Source: an uncultured Elusimicrobiales bacterium (GTDB lineage: Bacteria > Elusimicrobiota > Elusimicrobia > Elusimicrobiales > Elusimicrobiaceae). From it: 64,000 bases of DNA. Numbering within the stretch: position 1 is the stretch's first letter; each line of letters begins with the position of its first letter. This document shows positions 3,693 to 40,081 of the stretch, in pieces. The notes below the pieces were generated by a model. The model was not told the DNA's origin, did no database searches, and was given only the letters and a program-made list of their open reading frames with translations. The stretch lies in the NCBI GenBank assembly GCA_910576915.1, contig CAJTJT010000001.1, positions 148,634 through 212,633 on the forward strand, given 5' to 3'. A program made the translations under genes and the position numbers.

Positions 3693-4301
3693 TTAACAAT
3701 TAAAACTGCGTTTGATGATGCTTCTTACAATGCCTTCCACGTGGAAAGACGTTTTATCCGCCACAATCGGGTTATAGGACGGGTTTTCAGACTGCAAGAT
3801 AACGTTTTCTCCGTCCTGCGTAAAGCGTTTGACCATTACTTCCCCGTTATTGACGCAGACCACCACGTCTTTGTTTTTCGGCTGGCGGCTTTGTTCTACA
3901 ATCAGCCAGTCGTGCGGCGCAATCAACCGTTCCATAGAATCGCCTTTGGCTTCCACCATGAAGCCTTTGCACGCGGGGAAATACACCATGCTTGGGTCCA
4001 CGGGCACGATGCGGGTGGGTTCCCCGTCCAAAATCGTTCCTTCCGGCCCGCATTTGGCCATGCCGTACATTTTAAGATAAATGACGTTGCGCTCCGGGTC
4101 TTTCAAAATAATATAGTCGCGCGGATTGGCGGGGTTGCGTTTCAGATAGCCTTTCTTTTCCAACTGTTTGATATGGTGGAACACCACGCTTTTGCCGCTT
4201 ACGTTTAAGCGGTCGGCCAGTTCTTCCATCGTCAGCGGGTCCGAGATGTTTGTTTTTAAAATTTCCAACAATTCTTCTTGTTTGGGGTGAAGGGCTTTCA
4301 T
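3693..4301 (-). CDS. lexA: LexA-type SOS repressor (wHTH + S24 peptidase)
   Basis: N-terminal wHTH (MEELADRLNVSGKSVVFHHIKQLEKKGYLKR), the S24 serine motif GDSM, and the Lys motif VMVKRF. Confidence 0.85.
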   Translation of the reverse strand: MKALHPKQEELLEILKTNISDPLTMEELADRLNVSGKSVVFHHIKQLEKKGYLKRNPANPRDYIILKDPERNVIYLKMYGMAKCGPEGTILDGEPTRIVPVDPSMVYFPACKGFMVEAKGDSMERLIAPHDWLIVEQSRQPKNKDVVVCVNNGEVMVKRFTQDGENVILQSENPSYNPIVADKTSFHVEGIVRSIIKRSFNC

Positions 4302-4328
4302 ACCGCGCTCCTTTAAACTTTTTATATC

Positions 4329-4348
4329 GTTCTATACTTTGTTCTATA
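4329..4348 (-). promoter_or_regulatory. Candidate LexA operator: direct repeat GTTCTATA-N4-GTTCTATA (TATAGAAC on the lexA strand)
   Basis: Two identical octamers at 4329-4336 and 4341-4348, about 30-45 nt upstream of the lexA start, overlapping its presumptive promoter. Confidence 0.35.
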
Positions 4349-4389
4349 ATTTTTTGAGAAAAATGTAAAGGGGTTTTTGATACCATCAG

Positions 4390-4646
4390 TCATCCCGTAG
4401 TATTTGGCAGTCTGCAGGGTTCAGGGGAGCTCGTTGTTATTAATTAGGTCATCCTGAATGGACGTTGTTCAGGATCTACTGATTTTAAGAAAAAAGGGAG
4501 ATCCCGAGCAGAAACACCTCGGGATGACTGTTAAATAACAACAGATTCCCGAACGCTGCGCGCCACTTACACGCTTGGGAATGACGTGAGTGCAATCCGT
4601 CGACAGCTTGTATCAAAAGGGAAGCAAAAAGTGCCGTCATTCTGAA
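4390..4646. repeat. Cluster of GTCAT..ATGAC palindromic (REP/MITE-like) elements
   Basis: Complete units at 4448-4476, 4500-4528 and 4545-4585, plus half-units at 4390 and 4636. Confidence 0.75.
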
Positions 4647-28208: not shown

Positions 28209-29225
28209 ATGAAACGGTTTTATCTGTTTGTATTGCTGCCTTTTATTTCATTGCCCGTGCTGGCCGCAACAAAAAACAAAATCAGCATGGTAACGTATTT
28301 CCCGGTTCCGTATGTAGCTTATTCCCAGGTGAATACAACGGACCAAATGGATATCGGCTTAACAAATACATGTGATATGAAATTAGGCTGTTCGGAAGAG
28401 TCTGCCACGTTAAATGCTACTCGGGTAAATTTAAAGGGAGGCAAATTAAACTTGGACGGCGGCCGCGGGATAAAAGGCTATACGCTTAGTTTGGGTAGCG
28501 GAAGCGTCGACGGCAGAATCTCGTTCCAAAATGTACGTATCCAAACGGGTAACATGGAAAGCGTAAACGCGCAAGATATGAAAGTGTCCGCGCTTAAACT
28601 GTTTGGAAAGACTTTTCCCTCCTGCAAAGAGAAAGACCCTTCGGGACAAATGCAGTGGGCGAGCTTAAAACTCAAAGGTGCGTCCTCGAATGAACTTTAT
28701 TTGGCGTGCGGCGGTTTAGGAGAATCAACCGAGCCCGAAGAAGACTGTTCGGTCCGTTCCTATAAATTGGCGAACAAAAGCAAATGCTGCCCGGGAACGC
28801 CTACAAGTGACGGCGATTGCTGGCTGGCTCCTTCTTACGAATGGGGGGCGAAAAAGAACTTTTCCGGCACATTTACGGTTACATTTTTCGTAGATCCTAT
28901 TCAAACATGTTATGATGCCGCTCACACCAATCCAAACGTATATCGGAAAGTTTTGCCTAGAGAAGCGCAGTGGCCTGTCATGAACTGCGGGGAACGCAAT
29001 AATGCAAATAAACCGTCGTTGTCGTGCGGCCCTACGCATACGCCGGACGGGGTTGTTTTTCCAACATGTTACTATACGGTTGACGTGCCCGCAACACTCG
29101 GGCATGATTATGATATTTACCATACGGGATGTAAAAAACTTTCTGACACCGAATGCGAGTGTACCGCCAGCCGCTGGCCGGGGCATGAGTGTGTGGAAAA
29201 AACCGCTCAAAAAAACGGGTGGTAA
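28209..29225 (+). CDS. Secreted cysteine-rich protein, function unknown
   Basis: Signal peptide MKRFYLFVLLPFISLPVLA. About 20 Cys are concentrated in the C-terminal half. AGGAGG RBS. Confidence 0.7.
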   Translation: MKRFYLFVLLPFISLPVLAATKNKISMVTYFPVPYVAYSQVNTTDQMDIGLTNTCDMKLGCSEESATLNATRVNLKGGKLNLDGGRGIKGYTLSLGSGSVDGRISFQNVRIQTGNMESVNAQDMKVSALKLFGKTFPSCKEKDPSGQMQWASLKLKGASSNELYLACGGLGESTEPEEDCSVRSYKLANKSKCCPGTPTSDGDCWLAPSYEWGAKKNFSGTFTVTFFVDPIQTCYDAAHTNPNVYRKVLPREAQWPVMNCGERNNANKPSLSCGPTHTPDGVVFPTCYYTVDVPATLGHDYDIYHTGCKKLSDTECECTASRWPGHECVEKTAQKNGW

Positions 29226-29372
29226 AATTCTGCTTGCGTGACAAAAAGCGGCTCCAAAGGCCGCTTTTTGTTATATGGGGGTGCCCGGGCGCGGGCTTCG
29301 GTTTTTGCCGGGGATATTTTTTTATTTGCGCGTGAAAAAACTTGTTATAATAAAATACGAGGATTTCTGTTT

Positions 29373-30230
29373 ATGACCGAACAACGTATCAATATCATGG
29401 AGCCGGAAGTTGCCGCGGCAAAACCCGCGGGTGCGGAAAAGCCGCAGGTGGTATACGCGACGGTGACGGAACGTTTCGTCGCTTTGTTGATTGATTATGG
29501 CGTGGTGTTTATCCCTGCGCAGCTGATTGCCGCGCTGGTGATTAAATTGTTGGGTCCCAGCCTGGAACTGGGGGGCATTATCGCCATTTTGGCCGGTATT
29601 AACGGTGCGTTTATTTTGTACGAAACCATTTTATCCAGCGGCGACCGCGTGACCCTCGGCAAGAGCCTGGTGGGCATCGCCGTGGTAAAAAAAGATTTAA
29701 GCGGTCCGCTTTCCATCCCGCAGGCGTTTGTGCGCGCGGTTGGTTATTACATCAGCGCGGCGCTTTTTATGTGCGGGTTTTTGTTGGCGTTTTTTGATGA
29801 CCGCCACCGTGCCCTGCAGGATTTTTTAAGCGGCAGCGTGGTGGTGCAGATTCGCGAAAAATCGTGGGTGGAACGCACCGTCGTGCGGTTTTTGGGCGGC
29901 GTGCTTTTGACCGCTTTTGCGTGGACGGCGTACTCGCAGTTTTTTGGCGGCGGGTCGCTGATTCAAAAGTATTACGTCGACCAGGCGCGCAAACACTTGG
30001 TAAAAATCGCGCTTTTGGAAGAAGCCCACTACACGCGTTATGGGCGGTATACCAACGATTTGCTGCGCTTATCTCTCCTGTCTGGGGACCCGGTTCAATT
30101 CCAGCGCGATACGCAAAAAGTGCTTTCGCCCAAAGGTTTTAAAATCGGCGTGAACGGGGAGCGGTACAAACTCAGCGCCGTGGCGCGGGACGAAAAAAAG
30201 ACTACCGTCTATTACGCTCCGGGCGAATAA
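29373..30230 (+). CDS. RDD-family membrane protein with C-terminal pilin-like extracytoplasmic domain
   Basis: RDD core (ERFVALLIDY...DRVTLGK...FFDDRHRALQDFLSGSVVV). After the last TM comes YYVDQARKHLVKIALLEEAHYTRYGRYTNDL, which is pilin-shaft-like. Confidence 0.65.
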   Translation: MTEQRINIMEPEVAAAKPAGAEKPQVVYATVTERFVALLIDYGVVFIPAQLIAALVIKLLGPSLELGGIIAILAGINGAFILYETILSSGDRVTLGKSLVGIAVVKKDLSGPLSIPQAFVRAVGYYISAALFMCGFLLAFFDDRHRALQDFLSGSVVVQIREKSWVERTVVRFLGGVLLTAFAWTAYSQFFGGGSLIQKYYVDQARKHLVKIALLEEAHYTRYGRYTNDLLRLSLLSGDPVQFQRDTQKVLSPKGFKIGVNGERYKLSAVARDEKKTTVYYAPGE

Positions 30231-30243
30231 CATTTAGGTTCAT

Positions 30244-30277
30244 AAAAAATCCTCCGCTTTGGCGGAGGATTTTTTTT
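30244..30277. terminator. Bidirectional terminator between convergent RDD genes
   Basis: ATCCTCCGC/GCGGAGGAT stem flanked by A6 and T8 runs. Confidence 0.8.
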
Positions 30278-30280
30278 CGG

Positions 30281-31120
30281 TTATTTAGCCCCTGTAAACG
30301 AAGCGCATAGTTCCCGGCCGGGTGCGGTGTCGGACTGGCAGGTTACCGGCCCGCCGTCAAACGAGTAATACAGCGAATACAAAATATCCATTCCATTCGA
30401 GCGCGCCTGCGCCGTTACGCCGCCCGGTTCCAGCACCAGTTCGTACCCTTTACAGCAAAGTTTTTGCGGATTGATTTTTTTACATCCGTTATATTCACCC
30501 TGCCATTCGCGCGGGTCTGCCCCCGGCAAAGACGCATCCTTTTGCTGTTGGCGCGCGGCCTGGCCCAAAGACGTCAGCATGCGTGAAAGCTGAATATGGC
30601 GTTCCGTGCGCTGGTATTGCGGCAGCGCCACCAGCCCCAGGAGCATGGTTACAAACGCAAGCGCCAGCAAAATGGAAACCACGGTAATCAGCGTGAGCGA
30701 GGCTTCTTCCGCTTCTTCTTCCTCGTCCAGGTCCGGGTTGAAGTCGGCGTTTTTGACGATGACCGCGCTGTGGCTGACGCGGTCGTGCAGCGTCCGTTTT
30801 TTCTTGTCAAACGCGGCGATAAAAAAGCCGAAATAAAACGTAATGTTCGTAATCAGTTTGGATAAAATGCGCTCCGTGGCCTGCCAAAACGTCAGGCGGC
30901 GGCCGCGGCGGTCCACCACTTTTATGTTCATGATGATTTTGCCTAAACTCGCTTGCAGCGGCGAGCTTTCGAGTAGCGCATAATACAGCCAAATGATTAC
31001 CAAAAGCACCAGCGGAACAGTGGCCCCGCTGAGCATTTGGGACAGAATCCAAAAAATCACGGCAAATACGGCCGCATCAATTAAGAAAGCGAAAAAACGC
31101 TTCCATACACTTGCATACAT
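30281..31120 (-). CDS. RDD-family membrane protein fused to a pilin-like module
   Basis: RDD core (KRFFAFLIDA...LGK...AFDKKKRTLHDRVSHSAVI) and an acidic linker. Then SLTLITVVSILLALAFVTMLLGLVALPQYQRTE, with a C-terminal ...ELCASFTGAK like the ...CKSLGF/CKSISGK ends of the local pilins. Confidence 0.7.
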   Translation of the reverse strand: MYASVWKRFFAFLIDAAVFAVIFWILSQMLSGATVPLVLLVIIWLYYALLESSPLQASLGKIIMNIKVVDRRGRRLTFWQATERILSKLITNITFYFGFFIAAFDKKKRTLHDRVSHSAVIVKNADFNPDLDEEEEAEEASLTLITVVSILLALAFVTMLLGLVALPQYQRTERHIQLSRMLTSLGQAARQQQKDASLPGADPREWQGEYNGCKKINPQKLCCKGYELVLEPGGVTAQARSNGMDILYSLYYSFDGGPVTCQSDTAPGRELCASFTGAK

Positions 31121-31207
31121 AACGCACCCCCCTTTGGCGTAGTTGTATATAGATAGTATAGGCGCGGGGTAAAAAACGGCAAGGGTAAAAATTGAGTAGA
31201 AGGGGCG

Positions 31208-31690
31208 TCAGCGGCAGAGGGGGACAGGGACGGCTCCGGCGGCTTTTAAGAGGTCGTTGGGGTTCATTTTAATTTGCAGGCCGCGGATGCCCGCGCTGAT
31301 GTAAATGTAGTCCCATAAAATACAGTCTTCGTGGATAAAGGTGGGGAAATGCTTTTTCATGCCCAAAGGGGAACATCCGCCGCGGATGTAGCCTGTCAGC
31401 GGGAACAGTTCTTTTACATGCAGCATTTCGCACGATTTGTTGCCGCTTGCGCGTGCGGCGGCTTTTAAATCCAACTCCGCCGCCCCGGGAATGACGCACA
31501 CAAAAAGCCCCGTTTTATCCCCGCGCAAAACAAGGGTTTTGTATACCTGGTCGATGTTTTCGCCCAAACTGCTGGCCACGTGCGCGGCGCTTAAATCTTC
31601 CTCGTCCACTTGATACGGGATGAGTTCGTACGGGATGTTAAGTTCGTCCAGCCGTCGTGCGGCGTTTGTTTTGTGGATTTTTTCCTTCAT
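31208..31690 (-). CDS. ybaK: Cys-tRNA(Pro)/Cys-tRNA(Cys) deacylase
   Basis: YbaK-type pattern (TNAARRLDELNIPYE...KTLV...GYIRGGCSPLG). Confidence 0.8.
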   Translation of the reverse strand: MKEKIHKTNAARRLDELNIPYELIPYQVDEEDLSAAHVASSLGENIDQVYKTLVLRGDKTGLFVCVIPGAAELDLKAAARASGNKSCEMLHVKELFPLTGYIRGGCSPLGMKKHFPTFIHEDCILWDYIYISAGIRGLQIKMNPNDLLKAAGAVPVPLCR

Positions 31691-31728
31691 ATTTAAATTA
31701 TAGAATTTTTGGCGGTGCGGCGTGCCCC

Positions 31729-31756
31729 TTGACCCGTTTTTTTTTTTTGATAATAT
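31729..31756 (+). promoter_or_regulatory. Poly-T-spacer promoter (TTGACC-CG-T12-GA-TAATAT)
   Basis: T12 at 31737-31748. Confidence 0.7.
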
Positions 31757-31871: not shown

Positions 31872-32363
31872 ATGAAAGGGTTTACGTTAATTGAGCTGTT
31901 GGTAGTCGTATTAATTATCGGCATTTTGTCTTCGGTGGCGTTGCCGCAGTATACCAAAGCGGTGGAAAAGGCCCGGGCATCGGAGGCGCGGGTAATTCTG
32001 AAAAAAATGTCGGATAATATAGATTTGTGTTTACTGAATACGGGTATTTATTCTGAATGTATGAACAAAGATATTGTATTCGAGGGATTTGAAAATTATT
32101 CTGGAACAAGCCTTGCTTTCTCTACTAATAATTTCTCCTATACATGGCTATTTTTCCCTATGGCTACGAGAAAAGGAGGAGATTATCGTTTGAGTGCTGT
32201 TTCTGCCTCTTTGTATCCGCAGATTAAAGGTGGAATAACGTTGCCGGAGGCGGGGGTGTATTGTCAGGGACTAACTGCTAAGGGCGAAGAAATTTGCAAA
32301 TCAATAAGCGGAAAAACCTCTATTCCGTTAGGAGAGAGCGGTAATCATACCTATCCTTTATAA
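31872..32363 (+). CDS. Type IV pilin-like protein
   Basis: [30 protein letters not shown]. Confidence 0.9.
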   Translation: [163 protein letters not shown]

Positions 32364-38959: not shown

Positions 38960-40081
38960 ATGAAGAAACTTATCCCGCTGTTACTATTTTTATCAGCCTG
39001 CAGTATTTCTTATGCTGAAAGCATGAAGTTTATCACGGTGTTATCCAGCCCCGTCGGAACGTTTAACAAGCTGGAAGCGGTGGACCCTACTTCTCCCGCC
39101 TACGGTAAGACCGTAAACTTTTGTACGAATATCGGTACGCAAGGTGTGGTGGAGTTAAAAGGCACCAAACCTGCGGCATTAAGCACGGTAGTATTATCCA
39201 ATAATACAACGCTTGGCAAAACGGACGAAGGGAAGTTTTCGTTAAATAACATTACGCTTAAACAAGGCGGAAGTATCAAGGGCGGACGGCTGTTTGGGAA
39301 TACTTTTACCGTAAATAACGCGGCATCCGGCAAGGCCAGTAATTTATACGGCAATACGCTTACGGTAGCGGGGGCGAAAACGAAGACTTTGGATGTAAAC
39401 AGCGGAGCGTCGAAAATTAACGGCCCCGGAGATTCTACGGGAAAGGAAGAGATGGTATGGAGCAACCAGTATCAGGATGACGACGCGTGCAAATCGGGTT
39501 CTGCCTGTGCCAAACAGTATTTATTGAAAGAGAAAGGGGCGGCTCCAGTCGGCTGCCCGGACGGACAGTATGAAAGTAACGGCGTTTGTTGCCCAGTTGG
39601 ACAATTGTCTAAAGATGGAAAAACTTGTGTATATGCTTATAAGCCGGAACGGGTAAATGTAGGGATTTTGGTCGCTTGTCATTCGTCCGCGTTTGAGGAT
39701 TTGGGGGCCGCCGGAGCATCTGTGTCAATTATAGATAATAATACTTGCCGCCGTCCATATTCTGTCCCGTTAAGTTACTTCGTCGGAGGGAAACTTCCTA
39801 GTGTGGCTGCAGGCGGAGGATGCGAAGCGCATCATGCATATTATAATCGCGGAAAATGGTGGGAAGGTGGTGAACACCAGGGGTATAGTCTTGGGCGGTG
39901 CAATACCTCTATAAGCGACCAAGAATTTTGCGATTCCCGTTGCACGGGTGCAACGTGCACGGCTAAGTGTATTATCAGCGAAACATATCCGGATACTTGC
40001 GGACGCTATAAATGCAGCAACGGCAGACATTGTGATAACTCTTCGGGAAGCGGCGTTATGCTGCGCTGTGTGAGGGAATAA
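38960..40081 (+). CDS. Secreted cysteine-rich protein, function unknown
   Basis: Signal/lipobox-like MKKLIPLLLFLSACS. A Gly/Asn/Thr-rich N-terminal half and about 28 Cys in the C-terminal half. AGGAG RBS. Confidence 0.7.
   Translation: MKKLIPLLLFLSACSISYAESMKFITVLSSPVGTFNKLEAVDPTSPAYGKTVNFCTNIGTQGVVELKGTKPAALSTVVLSNNTTLGKTDEGKFSLNNITLKQGGSIKGGRLFGNTFTVNNAASGKASNLYGNTLTVAGAKTKTLDVNSGASKINGPGDSTGKEEMVWSNQYQDDDACKSGSACAKQYLLKEKGAAPVGCPDGQYESNGVCCPVGQLSKDGKTCVYAYKPERVNVGILVACHSSAFEDLGAAGASVSIIDNNTCRRPYSVPLSYFVGGKLPSVAAGGGCEAHHAYYNRGKWWEGGEHQGYSLGRCNTSISDQEFCDSRCTGATCTAKCIISETYPDTCGRYKCSNGRHCDNSSGSGVMLRCVRE

Follow-up and report, generated by a model that had tools for sequence, protein, structure and literature searches.

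A putative RDD-pilin chimera encoded by Elusimicrobiaceae

Type IV pilins are defined by a cleavable class III signal peptide and, to our knowledge, everything known of them assumes that they are first processed and then extracted from the membrane. This study concerns two neighbouring genes, here called gene A and gene B, in a 64,000-nucleotide stretch of DNA ("the window") from an uncultured Elusimicrobiales bacterium (contig CAJTJT010000001.1, positions 148,634 to 212,633). Both encode membrane proteins of the RDD family. As read from its sequence, the product of gene A joins an RDD domain to an entire type IV pilin, made up of helix alpha1 and the head, that has no prepilin cleavage site.

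Three features define a type IV pilin: a leader of 6-26 residues with Gly as its last residue, a stretch of about 21 hydrophobic residues, and a Glu at position 5 (Berry and Pelicic, PMC4471445). The Gly at position -1 is absolutely critical for processing, and mutants of Glu5 are unable to homopolymerise (PMC4471445). The gene A product shares with type IV pilins and pseudopilins the hydrophobic alpha1-N, an equivalent of Pro22 followed by QY, alpha1-C, the beta region and a D-region with Cys-x10-Cys. Unlike them, it carries some 140 residues, made up of the RDD domain and a linker, ahead of the helix, and has neither a short leader nor Phe1 nor Glu5.

The characterised RDD protein is a Na+(Li+,K+)/H+ antiporter of Halobacillus andaensis, a stand-alone protein of 178 residues in which R124, R129, D154 and D158 are functionally important (PMC5996927). 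A and B share its family model, including the conserved Arg, Asp and Asp, but add to it a transmembrane (TM) helix and a domain of 95-115 residues that is predicted to be extracytoplasmic.

In Legionella pneumophila the pilin PilA2 has a role independent of PilD and PilT, which is a precedent for a physiological role of an unprocessed, unassembled membrane pilin (PMC13170364). However, PilA2 is a normal cleavable major pilin, whereas in A retention in the membrane would be hard-wired by the gene fusion. The bindosome of Sulfolobus, formed by sugar-binding proteins with class III signal peptides, resembles A in combining pilin and non-pilin parts (PMC4471445). There a pilin N-terminus is joined to a foreign head; A is the reverse, with a foreign N-terminus joined to a pilin helix and head.

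An earlier note on this DNA, made without database searches, did not recognise the architecture from described systems. Literature searches for RDD with pilin, for RDD with Pex and for non-cleavable pilin-like proteins likewise found nothing relevant, and no paper on the RDD-pilin combination. The permanent anchoring of a whole pilin behind an RDD domain, as the fusion in A would bring about, is apparently undescribed. Gene A may be regarded as a variant of the known pilin-like proteins and of the RDD family, the anatomy of its sequence being well established.

The RDD domain and pilin module of gene A

Genes A and B are convergent and are separated by 50 bp. Both are real open reading frames, of 279 and 285 codons, respectively. 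They and the parts of A are as follows.

30281-31120, minus strand: gene A, open reading frame of 279 residues, putative RDD-pilin chimera (family A)
30773-31117, minus strand: RDD domain of A, residues 2-116 (PF06271), with two evident TM helices and, at residues 88-104, a hydrophobic stretch of lesser length
30701-30748, minus strand: residues 125-140 of A, conserved F-N/D-P-D motif and acidic linker, from column counts; predicted to be cytoplasmic
30623-30700, minus strand: residues 141-166 of A, fourth TM helix (TM4), the likely equivalent of pilin alpha1-N, from the translation, conservation and the register of hhalign and hidden Markov model (HMM) alignments
30284-30622, minus strand: residues 167-279 of A, PQYQ, alpha1-C and predicted pilin head, from the translation, head-only hhalign and HMM comparisons and an AlphaFold2 (AF2) model
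29373-30230, plus strand: gene B, open reading frame of 285 residues, RDD protein of family B, to which a further TM helix and a strongly conserved C-terminal domain of 95 residues are added
31872-32363, plus strand: true prepilin gene with N_methyl and TIGR02532 matches and a poly-T promoter at 31728-31752

The reading frame of gene B is open from a GTG at 29238. Its start was placed at the ATG at 29373, which is shared by a public gene call identical across all 285 residues and by 66 homologues. The peptide strings quoted in the earlier note were all found in the translations at the positions given for them.

The RDD domain that had been assigned to the N-terminus of both proteins is borne out by Pfam PF06271, which has a gathering score of 24.1 bits. 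Residues 2-116 of A match this model with 88.5 bits (E value 6.5e-25) and residues 28-154 of B with 69 bits (6.5e-19), both far above that score. The model also matches every member of family A (35/35) and of family B (66/66). The RDD signature is found in both proteins, with TM1 opening on an Arg and bearing an Asp halfway along, and with another Asp (HD) past the last hydrophobic segment: R8, D15 and H112 are invariant in family A, where D113 is present in at least 90% of the members, and R34, D41 and D150 are invariant in family B. About 90 full-length or partial homologues of gene A were found, nearly all of them in Elusimicrobiaceae and named in the databases only "RDD family protein". 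Full-length copies occur in about 40 species-level genomes with 48-98% identity and an intact reading frame. Metagenome-assembled genomes labelled Elusimicrobium (L034, L045) are among those with an orthologue of A. Going by the names of the homologues of A and B, the source is a gut bacterium of the Elusimicrobiales, of Candidatus Avelusimicrobium type. The 279 homologues of gene B are all of Elusimicrobiaceae type.

The C-terminal segment of the minus-strand protein had been described as pilin-like, in agreement with three kinds of comparison. In BLASTP, the C-terminal 150 residues of A match two pilins of the window with E values of 4e-5 and 5e-5; the second of these alignments, with the pilin at 31872-32363, extends from end to end and takes in the C-terminal Cys-x10-Cys. 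From 25 family members a profile was made of the module (A3, residues 127-279, 153 residues), and HMMER was used to compare it with a library of 1.84 billion representative proteins. In the whole library 75 matches at E<1e-3 were obtained, of which 54 carry the prepilin motif G/A|FTLIEL and three more a near-variant of it. The prepilin matches cover profile positions 24-148, corresponding to about mature residue 7 through to the pilin C-terminus, and the best E values for true prepilins were 5e-9 and 5.5e-8. Comparison of the module with 51 mature pilins by hhalign gave a probability of 99.5% and an E value of 1.2e-22 over 129 columns. When the TM helix and PQYQ were cut from both sides, the head of A still aligned with the pilin heads with a probability of 98.4% and an E value of 1e-14 over 106 columns. 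A head-only HMM of A, run on nine pilins of the window and locus that the search had not picked, gave matches at 1e-6, 1.9e-5 and 9.7e-5. In a sequence-profile search of the PDB, four of the top five matches of A were type IV pilins in the same register, although these had marginal scores and did not extend beyond alpha1 (8tob, 0.035; gonococcal and meningococcal PilE, 0.66-0.96).

In the register common to hhalign and the HMM, positions 24/25 of the A module correspond to pilin residues 6/7. The Pro22 equivalent, P167, and Y169 of the following QY are present in all 34 family A members for which columns were counted. TM4 carries a polar stripe on one face, formed by T143, T146, S149, A153, F156 and V157. 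Four Cys residues are conserved in the family (C213, C223, C261 and C272), the last two of which align with the D-region disulfide pair of pilins, so that A has a homologous head with a conserved Cys pair of the D-region type. The AF2 model of A consists of one 65-residue helix (132-196), six strands and a C-terminal helix (pLDDT 91-96). TM4 lies inside the predicted helix, as in the long helix of a pilin.

The signals for processing are missing from A. The acidic linker, with a family mean of 6.7 Asp and Glu against 0.1 Lys and Arg, stands where the prepilin leader would be, and has no Gly-1. No short leader ending in Gly precedes the helix in A, which follows some 140 residues of other sequence, and none does so in B. 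A Gly anywhere in the linker or at the start of TM4 occurs in just three of the 34 family A members. There is no Glu5: the position is occupied by Ile or Val when the conserved Pro is aligned to P22, and no acidic residue is found inside TM4 in any of the 34 sequences, eight of which have an Asp at the boundary position 141. The N_methyl (PF07963) and TIGR02532 HMMs match neither A nor B, and match the neighbouring pilins at 5e-8 to 1e-6. These column counts and HMM scans uphold the remark in the earlier note that the G|F site and Glu5 are lacking from the minus-strand gene. Since leader, Gly-1, Phe1 and Glu5 are all absent, prepilin peptidase would have no site in A. The protein is thus pilin-derived by sequence, but with no Gly-1, no Glu5, no N_methyl match and about 140 residues before the helix it falls outside the class III signal peptide proteins.

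Cryptic prepilin cleavage of A was considered and rejected, there being no conserved Gly. The string "SLTLITVV" was also considered as a vestige of "GFTLIELL", but the register is four residues off once the Pro is aligned to P22, and this resemblance was not relied on.

Gene B and its C-terminal domain

The segment of gene B that follows the RDD domain is the following.

29883-30227, plus strand: residues 171-285 of B, TM helix, long helix and small alpha/beta domain with the invariant motif YTNDLLRLSLLSGDPVQFQRD, from the translation, hhalign and the AF2 model

In the AF2 model (pLDDT 90-94) the TM helix of this module is followed by a long helix, a pair of short ones and three strands. The helices at 165-192 and 194-223 give it a long helix of the pilin type. 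The module is more conserved than the RDD domain of the same protein, the pairwise identities being 0.69 and 0.63.

The earlier note had seen a pilin-like segment in this gene too. By hhalign, the B module matches pilins with an E value of 2.8e-4, and its head alone does so with a score of 26.7, an E value of 1.4e-4 and a probability of 52%, compared with a maximum score of 17.8 in 120 column shuffles. The aligned part comprises alpha1-C, the YGxYTxDL loop and the first strand of pilins, and its register is the one that the position of the TM helix would predict. Scored with an HMM of the B head, 18 of 51 pilin heads exceeded the 1% quantile for 1020 composition-matched shuffles, in a single register throughout, and eight exceeded the maximum of these shuffles. 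The ComP_DUS model of Pfam gives matches under threshold in 5 of the 66 family B members and none on A. The head of B has no Cys, and only its first half is weakly similar to pilins. BLASTP of B against a local pilin gave no match, and the B module compared with the A module alone by hhalign was insignificant. In the hhalign comparison A1 against A2, B is colinear with A through TM4, alpha1-C and the first strands, with an E value of 4.8e-19 that is mostly driven by the RDD domain. The pilin-like character of the segment therefore stands above the shuffle controls but falls below database significance. Judged from these alignments, the B module is probably, though not demonstrably, a much more diverged pilin derivative.

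In Foldseek the B model matched best the TM domains of three peroxisomal RING peroxins, Pex2, Pex10 and Pex12 (7t92 chains A/B/C), with probabilities of 0.97-0.99 and E values of 0.013-0.023 over 205-253 columns. These matches of a predicted model presumably reflect the RDD fold. Weak matches to Pfam Pex2_Pex12 were also found in two members of family A.

The two genes had been described as a convergent pair. Among 43 Elusimicrobiales genomes, B adjoins A only in the window and in two loci (L009 and L010) that are 98% identical to it and belong to the same species; in a further locus, L012, it is one pilin gene away. Elsewhere family B follows sulfatase-LemA-peptidase M48. On the strength of this synteny an operon-like pair was rejected, and the convergent arrangement would have arisen recently in this lineage, with no functional pairing of the two products. 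The neighbourhood of family B hints at maintenance of the membrane or envelope and not at pili. Two loci illustrate it, L005 (8447-10876) and L006 (5888-10867), in both of which a family B gene lies downstream of a cluster of LTA-synthase-like sulfatase, LemA and peptidase M48.

Topology and possible roles of the gene A product

On balance, with a little over even confidence, we lean towards reading A as a membrane-retained RDD-pilin chimera with a periplasmic binding head, B as its diverged relative, and A and B as no pair. In family A the Lys and Arg residues are concentrated in loop 2-3, with a mean of 8.2, and past the third hydrophobic segment, with 5.3; the N-terminus has 2.0 and loop 1-2 none. 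This segment (88-104) is under the TM hydropathy threshold, and TM1, TM2 and TM4 are above it. We infer that there are two RDD spans and an interfacial or re-entrant segment, in which case the linker would be cytoplasmic, TM4 would cross from inside to outside, like the helix of prepilins, and the head would be periplasmic. This placement is consistent with the conserved Cys pairs. In a relative with a Zn-ribbon, a TM helix and a pilin (P0228), the TM helix unambiguously runs from inside to outside.

The protein would remain in the inner membrane, with its RDD loops on the cytoplasmic side and an oxidised pilin head in the periplasm, where the head may act as a tethered binding domain. The conserved polar stripe suggests that TM4 packs onto further helices in the membrane, for which those of its own RDD domain are the simplest candidates. 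With a multi-helix anchor and no cleavage site, A would be neither pulled from the membrane nor polymerised like a normal subunit. A conserved family with a whole pilin on a polytopic anchor would mean that pilin heads also serve as fixed periplasmic domains, and gene A would tie the very large, almost uncharacterised RDD family to the well-studied pilin system. Should the tethered pilin touch the pilin pool or the base of the pilus, this contact could be used to study the control of filament length, anchoring and pilin homeostasis in a pilin-rich phylum; should it make no such contact, it would be a clean case of domain exaptation.

A number of observations pull in the other direction. The topology is drawn from charge and hydropathy rules alone, and a published hydropathy analysis calls RDD a protein of three transmembrane segments (PMC5996927). 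With three true RDD spans the head of A would lie in the cytoplasm. Foldseek searches of the PDB with the full-length AF2 models found no pilin, either for A, the best match of which was unrelated (E value 0.22), or for B. The pilin-head models of Pfam and NCBIfam do not reach threshold on A. With B, profile searches of the PDB found nothing and no pilin, and a search of 5.8 billion proteins with the B module returned only family B itself. Finally, orthologues of A in a clade from the ruminant gut keep the RDD domain, TM4 and LPQYQ but have lost the head. These proteins, of 178-184 residues and in the same uvrA-linked position, end about 15 residues past LPQYQ, which implies that the head is not essential to the protein's role.

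The failure of Foldseek, the subthreshold Pfam pilin-head families and the empty searches with B are also what favours the absence of any pilin relationship, the similarity in ALPQYQ and the hydrophobic stretch being a chance effect of composition. This is very improbable. For A, chance is excluded by the head-only hhalign E value of 1e-14 and the library HMM value of 5e-9 over the full pilin length; for B it has more room, though the shuffle controls argue against pure chance. Because Foldseek missed A in spite of secure sequence homology, the negative structural result was taken as uninformative. The order of secondary structure elements in the AF2 models of A and B does fit the lollipop fold. 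Of the profile and fold comparisons suggested in the earlier note, the former were thus decisive for A, but the latter, made with full-length models, gave no pilin fold for either protein.

The head-less orthologues were found in L007 (6001-6555) and in L046, L048 and L050 (match at 4001-4525), which derive from Elusimicrobiaceae of the sheep, roe deer and buffalo gut. They stand directly after uvrA, and ybaK is missing there as well.

Loss of the head in one clade that has kept the gene would be accounted for if the function were centred on the RDD domain, for instance cation/proton exchange as in the Halobacillus protein, and the captured pilin gave the protein an extra TM helix with a dispensable, slowly decaying head as passenger. 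The pairwise identity in family A, 0.73 in the RDD part as against 0.42 in the head, fits this explanation, as does the antiporter activity reported for one RDD protein (PMC5996927). We nevertheless consider it unlikely. The head is intact in the approximately 40 species with full-length copies (48-98% identity), which we read as a sign of selection on it, and it has four conserved Cys residues and a confidently predicted fold. In addition, the combination of RDD and pilin recurs independently in Xanthomonadales with a Pilin domain at Pfam level, and fusions of pilin modules to anchors of the Zn-ribbon and TM2 kinds exist as well.

The Xanthomonadales protein (P0095, Arenimonas) is composed of GYF_2, RDD and Pilin domains, and its PF00114 match of 30.6 bits is over the cut-off. 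Other RDD-pilin proteins of Elusimicrobiaceae (P0225, P0226, P0229, P0232, P0283 and P0289) have a canonical GILAAIAMPQYF helix. In the Zn-ribbon protein P0228 the pilin scores above the ComP_DUS cut-off, and P0276 has a Zn-ribbon, TM2 and a pilin. All are labelled in the databases only "RDD family protein" or "hypothetical". They share the logic of gene A, in which a cytoplasmic or membrane domain at the N-terminus stands in for the leader and a TM helix leads on to the pilin head, but keep a far more canonical alpha1, often with a "KKG-C" junction, the alpha1-N of gene A being the most degenerate. The variety of anchors in various lineages suggests that replacement of the leader by a cytoplasmic or membrane domain is a recurrent invention.

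A bolder proposal, in our view doubtful, is that such "anchored pilins" form an unrecognised class of type IV filament proteins in Elusimicrobiota and Xanthomonadales, in which RDD, TM2 or Zn-ribbon domains have replaced the leader. They would act from the inner membrane as a filament stop or anchor, or as a sensor or buffer of the pilin pool, coupling pilus biology to RDD, the fold of which, going by the predicted models, may resemble the TM domain of the Pex2/10/12 retrotranslocon.

Some further features of these fusions may be recorded. The Xanthomonadales GYF_2-RDD-Pilin gene (L088/L089, 8001-9188) lies between smg and topA in a conserved dprA-smg-topA locus. Like gene A, which has uvrA and fmt nearby, it is situated amid housekeeping and DNA-metabolism genes and not among pilus genes. 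The pilin TM helix opens with "G-C" in P0225, P0226, P0229, P0232, P0276, P0095 and P0092 (for example EKKGCAIAAVV, TKKGCLIALF and PSGCLVAVV), at the place where prepilins have KKG|F; gene A is without it. The junction might serve a peptidase or lipidation, or neither of the two. In P0087 (195 residues, JGI, from a 1.3-kb contig) a family A pilin module follows a non-RDD segment (…YISFSYYVYSGDWIRFEYEKDG…). Its N-terminus could be another fusion partner or an artefact of assembly or a frameshift.

That the head-less clade retains exactly RDD, TM4 and LPQYQ also agrees with a role for the membrane helix itself. The alpha1-like helix and LPQYQ might mimic a pilin within the membrane and bind the partners of unassembled pilins, or the pilins themselves, thereby reporting on or buffering the pilin pool. 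As an analogy, Kilmury and Burrows reportedly found in 2016 that PilS senses PilA within the membrane. P167, Y169, F156, V157 and S149 are invariant and the organism has a very large pilin repertoire. However, RDD has no known signalling output, the operon of A contains no regulator, and the polar face is equally well explained by packing on the protein's own RDD helices. Such a sensor seems less probable than any of the other proposed functions.

Genomic setting, promoters and terminator

In the 43 genomes, gene A is almost always preceded by uvrA and ybaK, with or without a pilin gene on the opposite strand between the two. The prepilin gene between uvrA and ybaK is syntenic in about 26 of them. 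In the window the ybaK-like neighbour and the poly-T promoters are located as follows.

31208-31690, minus strand: ybaK-like tRNA-editing gene, conserved upstream neighbour of A (Pfam tRNA_edit, E value 2.3e-22; synteny in the 43 genomes)
1753, 26611, 28093, 31728, 38845 and 42605, plus strand: six poly-T promoters, CTTGA(C/T)..G-T11-14-GATA(A)TAT, with a -35 element TTGAC, a poly-T spacer and a -10 element

The poly-T promoter, CTTGACCCG-T12-GATA, would be expected zero times by chance. Its six copies precede four prepilin genes and two genes for Cys-rich secreted proteins, and none of them precedes A or B. The co-occurrence of the two genes with a poly-T promoter regulon, which the earlier note had proposed to look for, was therefore not borne out, and co-regulation of A or B with the pilins through these promoters was rejected. 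Both genes also lie outside any cluster of type IV filament machinery.

This setting bears on the possibility that A is a basal anchor or terminator. The RDD-tethered pilin would dock through its alpha1 beneath a type IV pilus or pseudopilus during growth and, being unable to leave the membrane, would stop elongation and anchor the fibre, like the basal pilins of sortase pili. The full pilin layout is kept, including the P22-equivalent Pro (34/34) and the following QY, and the genomes encode prepilin peptidase, a T2SSE ATPase and many pilins. Moreover, Glu5 mutants still co-assemble with wild-type subunits (PMC4471445). Against it, A has no Glu5 to pair with the N-terminus of the preceding subunit, and over its first 20 residues the helix no longer reads FTLIELLVV but has diverged to a T/T/S/A polar stripe. 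The gene sits in a housekeeping uvrA-ybaK setting, with neither a poly-T promoter nor a cluster of pilus machinery, and a head-less clade exists. We consider an anchoring role quite unlikely, a little more so than a passenger head and a little less so than a sensor, and continue to favour a retained chimera with a periplasmic binding head.

The remaining elements near the two genes and behind the poly-T promoters are listed below.

28209-29225, plus strand: signal-peptide protein of 338 residues with a Cys-rich C-terminal half, behind a poly-T promoter; no Pfam or NCBIfam match
38960-40081, plus strand: signal-peptide protein of 373 residues with a Cys-rich C-terminal half and a lipobox-like LSAC, behind a poly-T promoter
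31155-31182, minus strand: putative promoter of gene A of the sigma-70 type (TTGCCG-16-TATACT), located between ybaK and A, from the consensus match alone
30244-30277, both strands: predicted bidirectional intrinsic terminator common to A and B, from direct reading of the sequence

The terminator, AAAAAATCCTCCGC-TTTG-GCGGAGGATTTTTTTT, is perfect, with a GC-rich stem of 8 bp flanked by A6 and T8.

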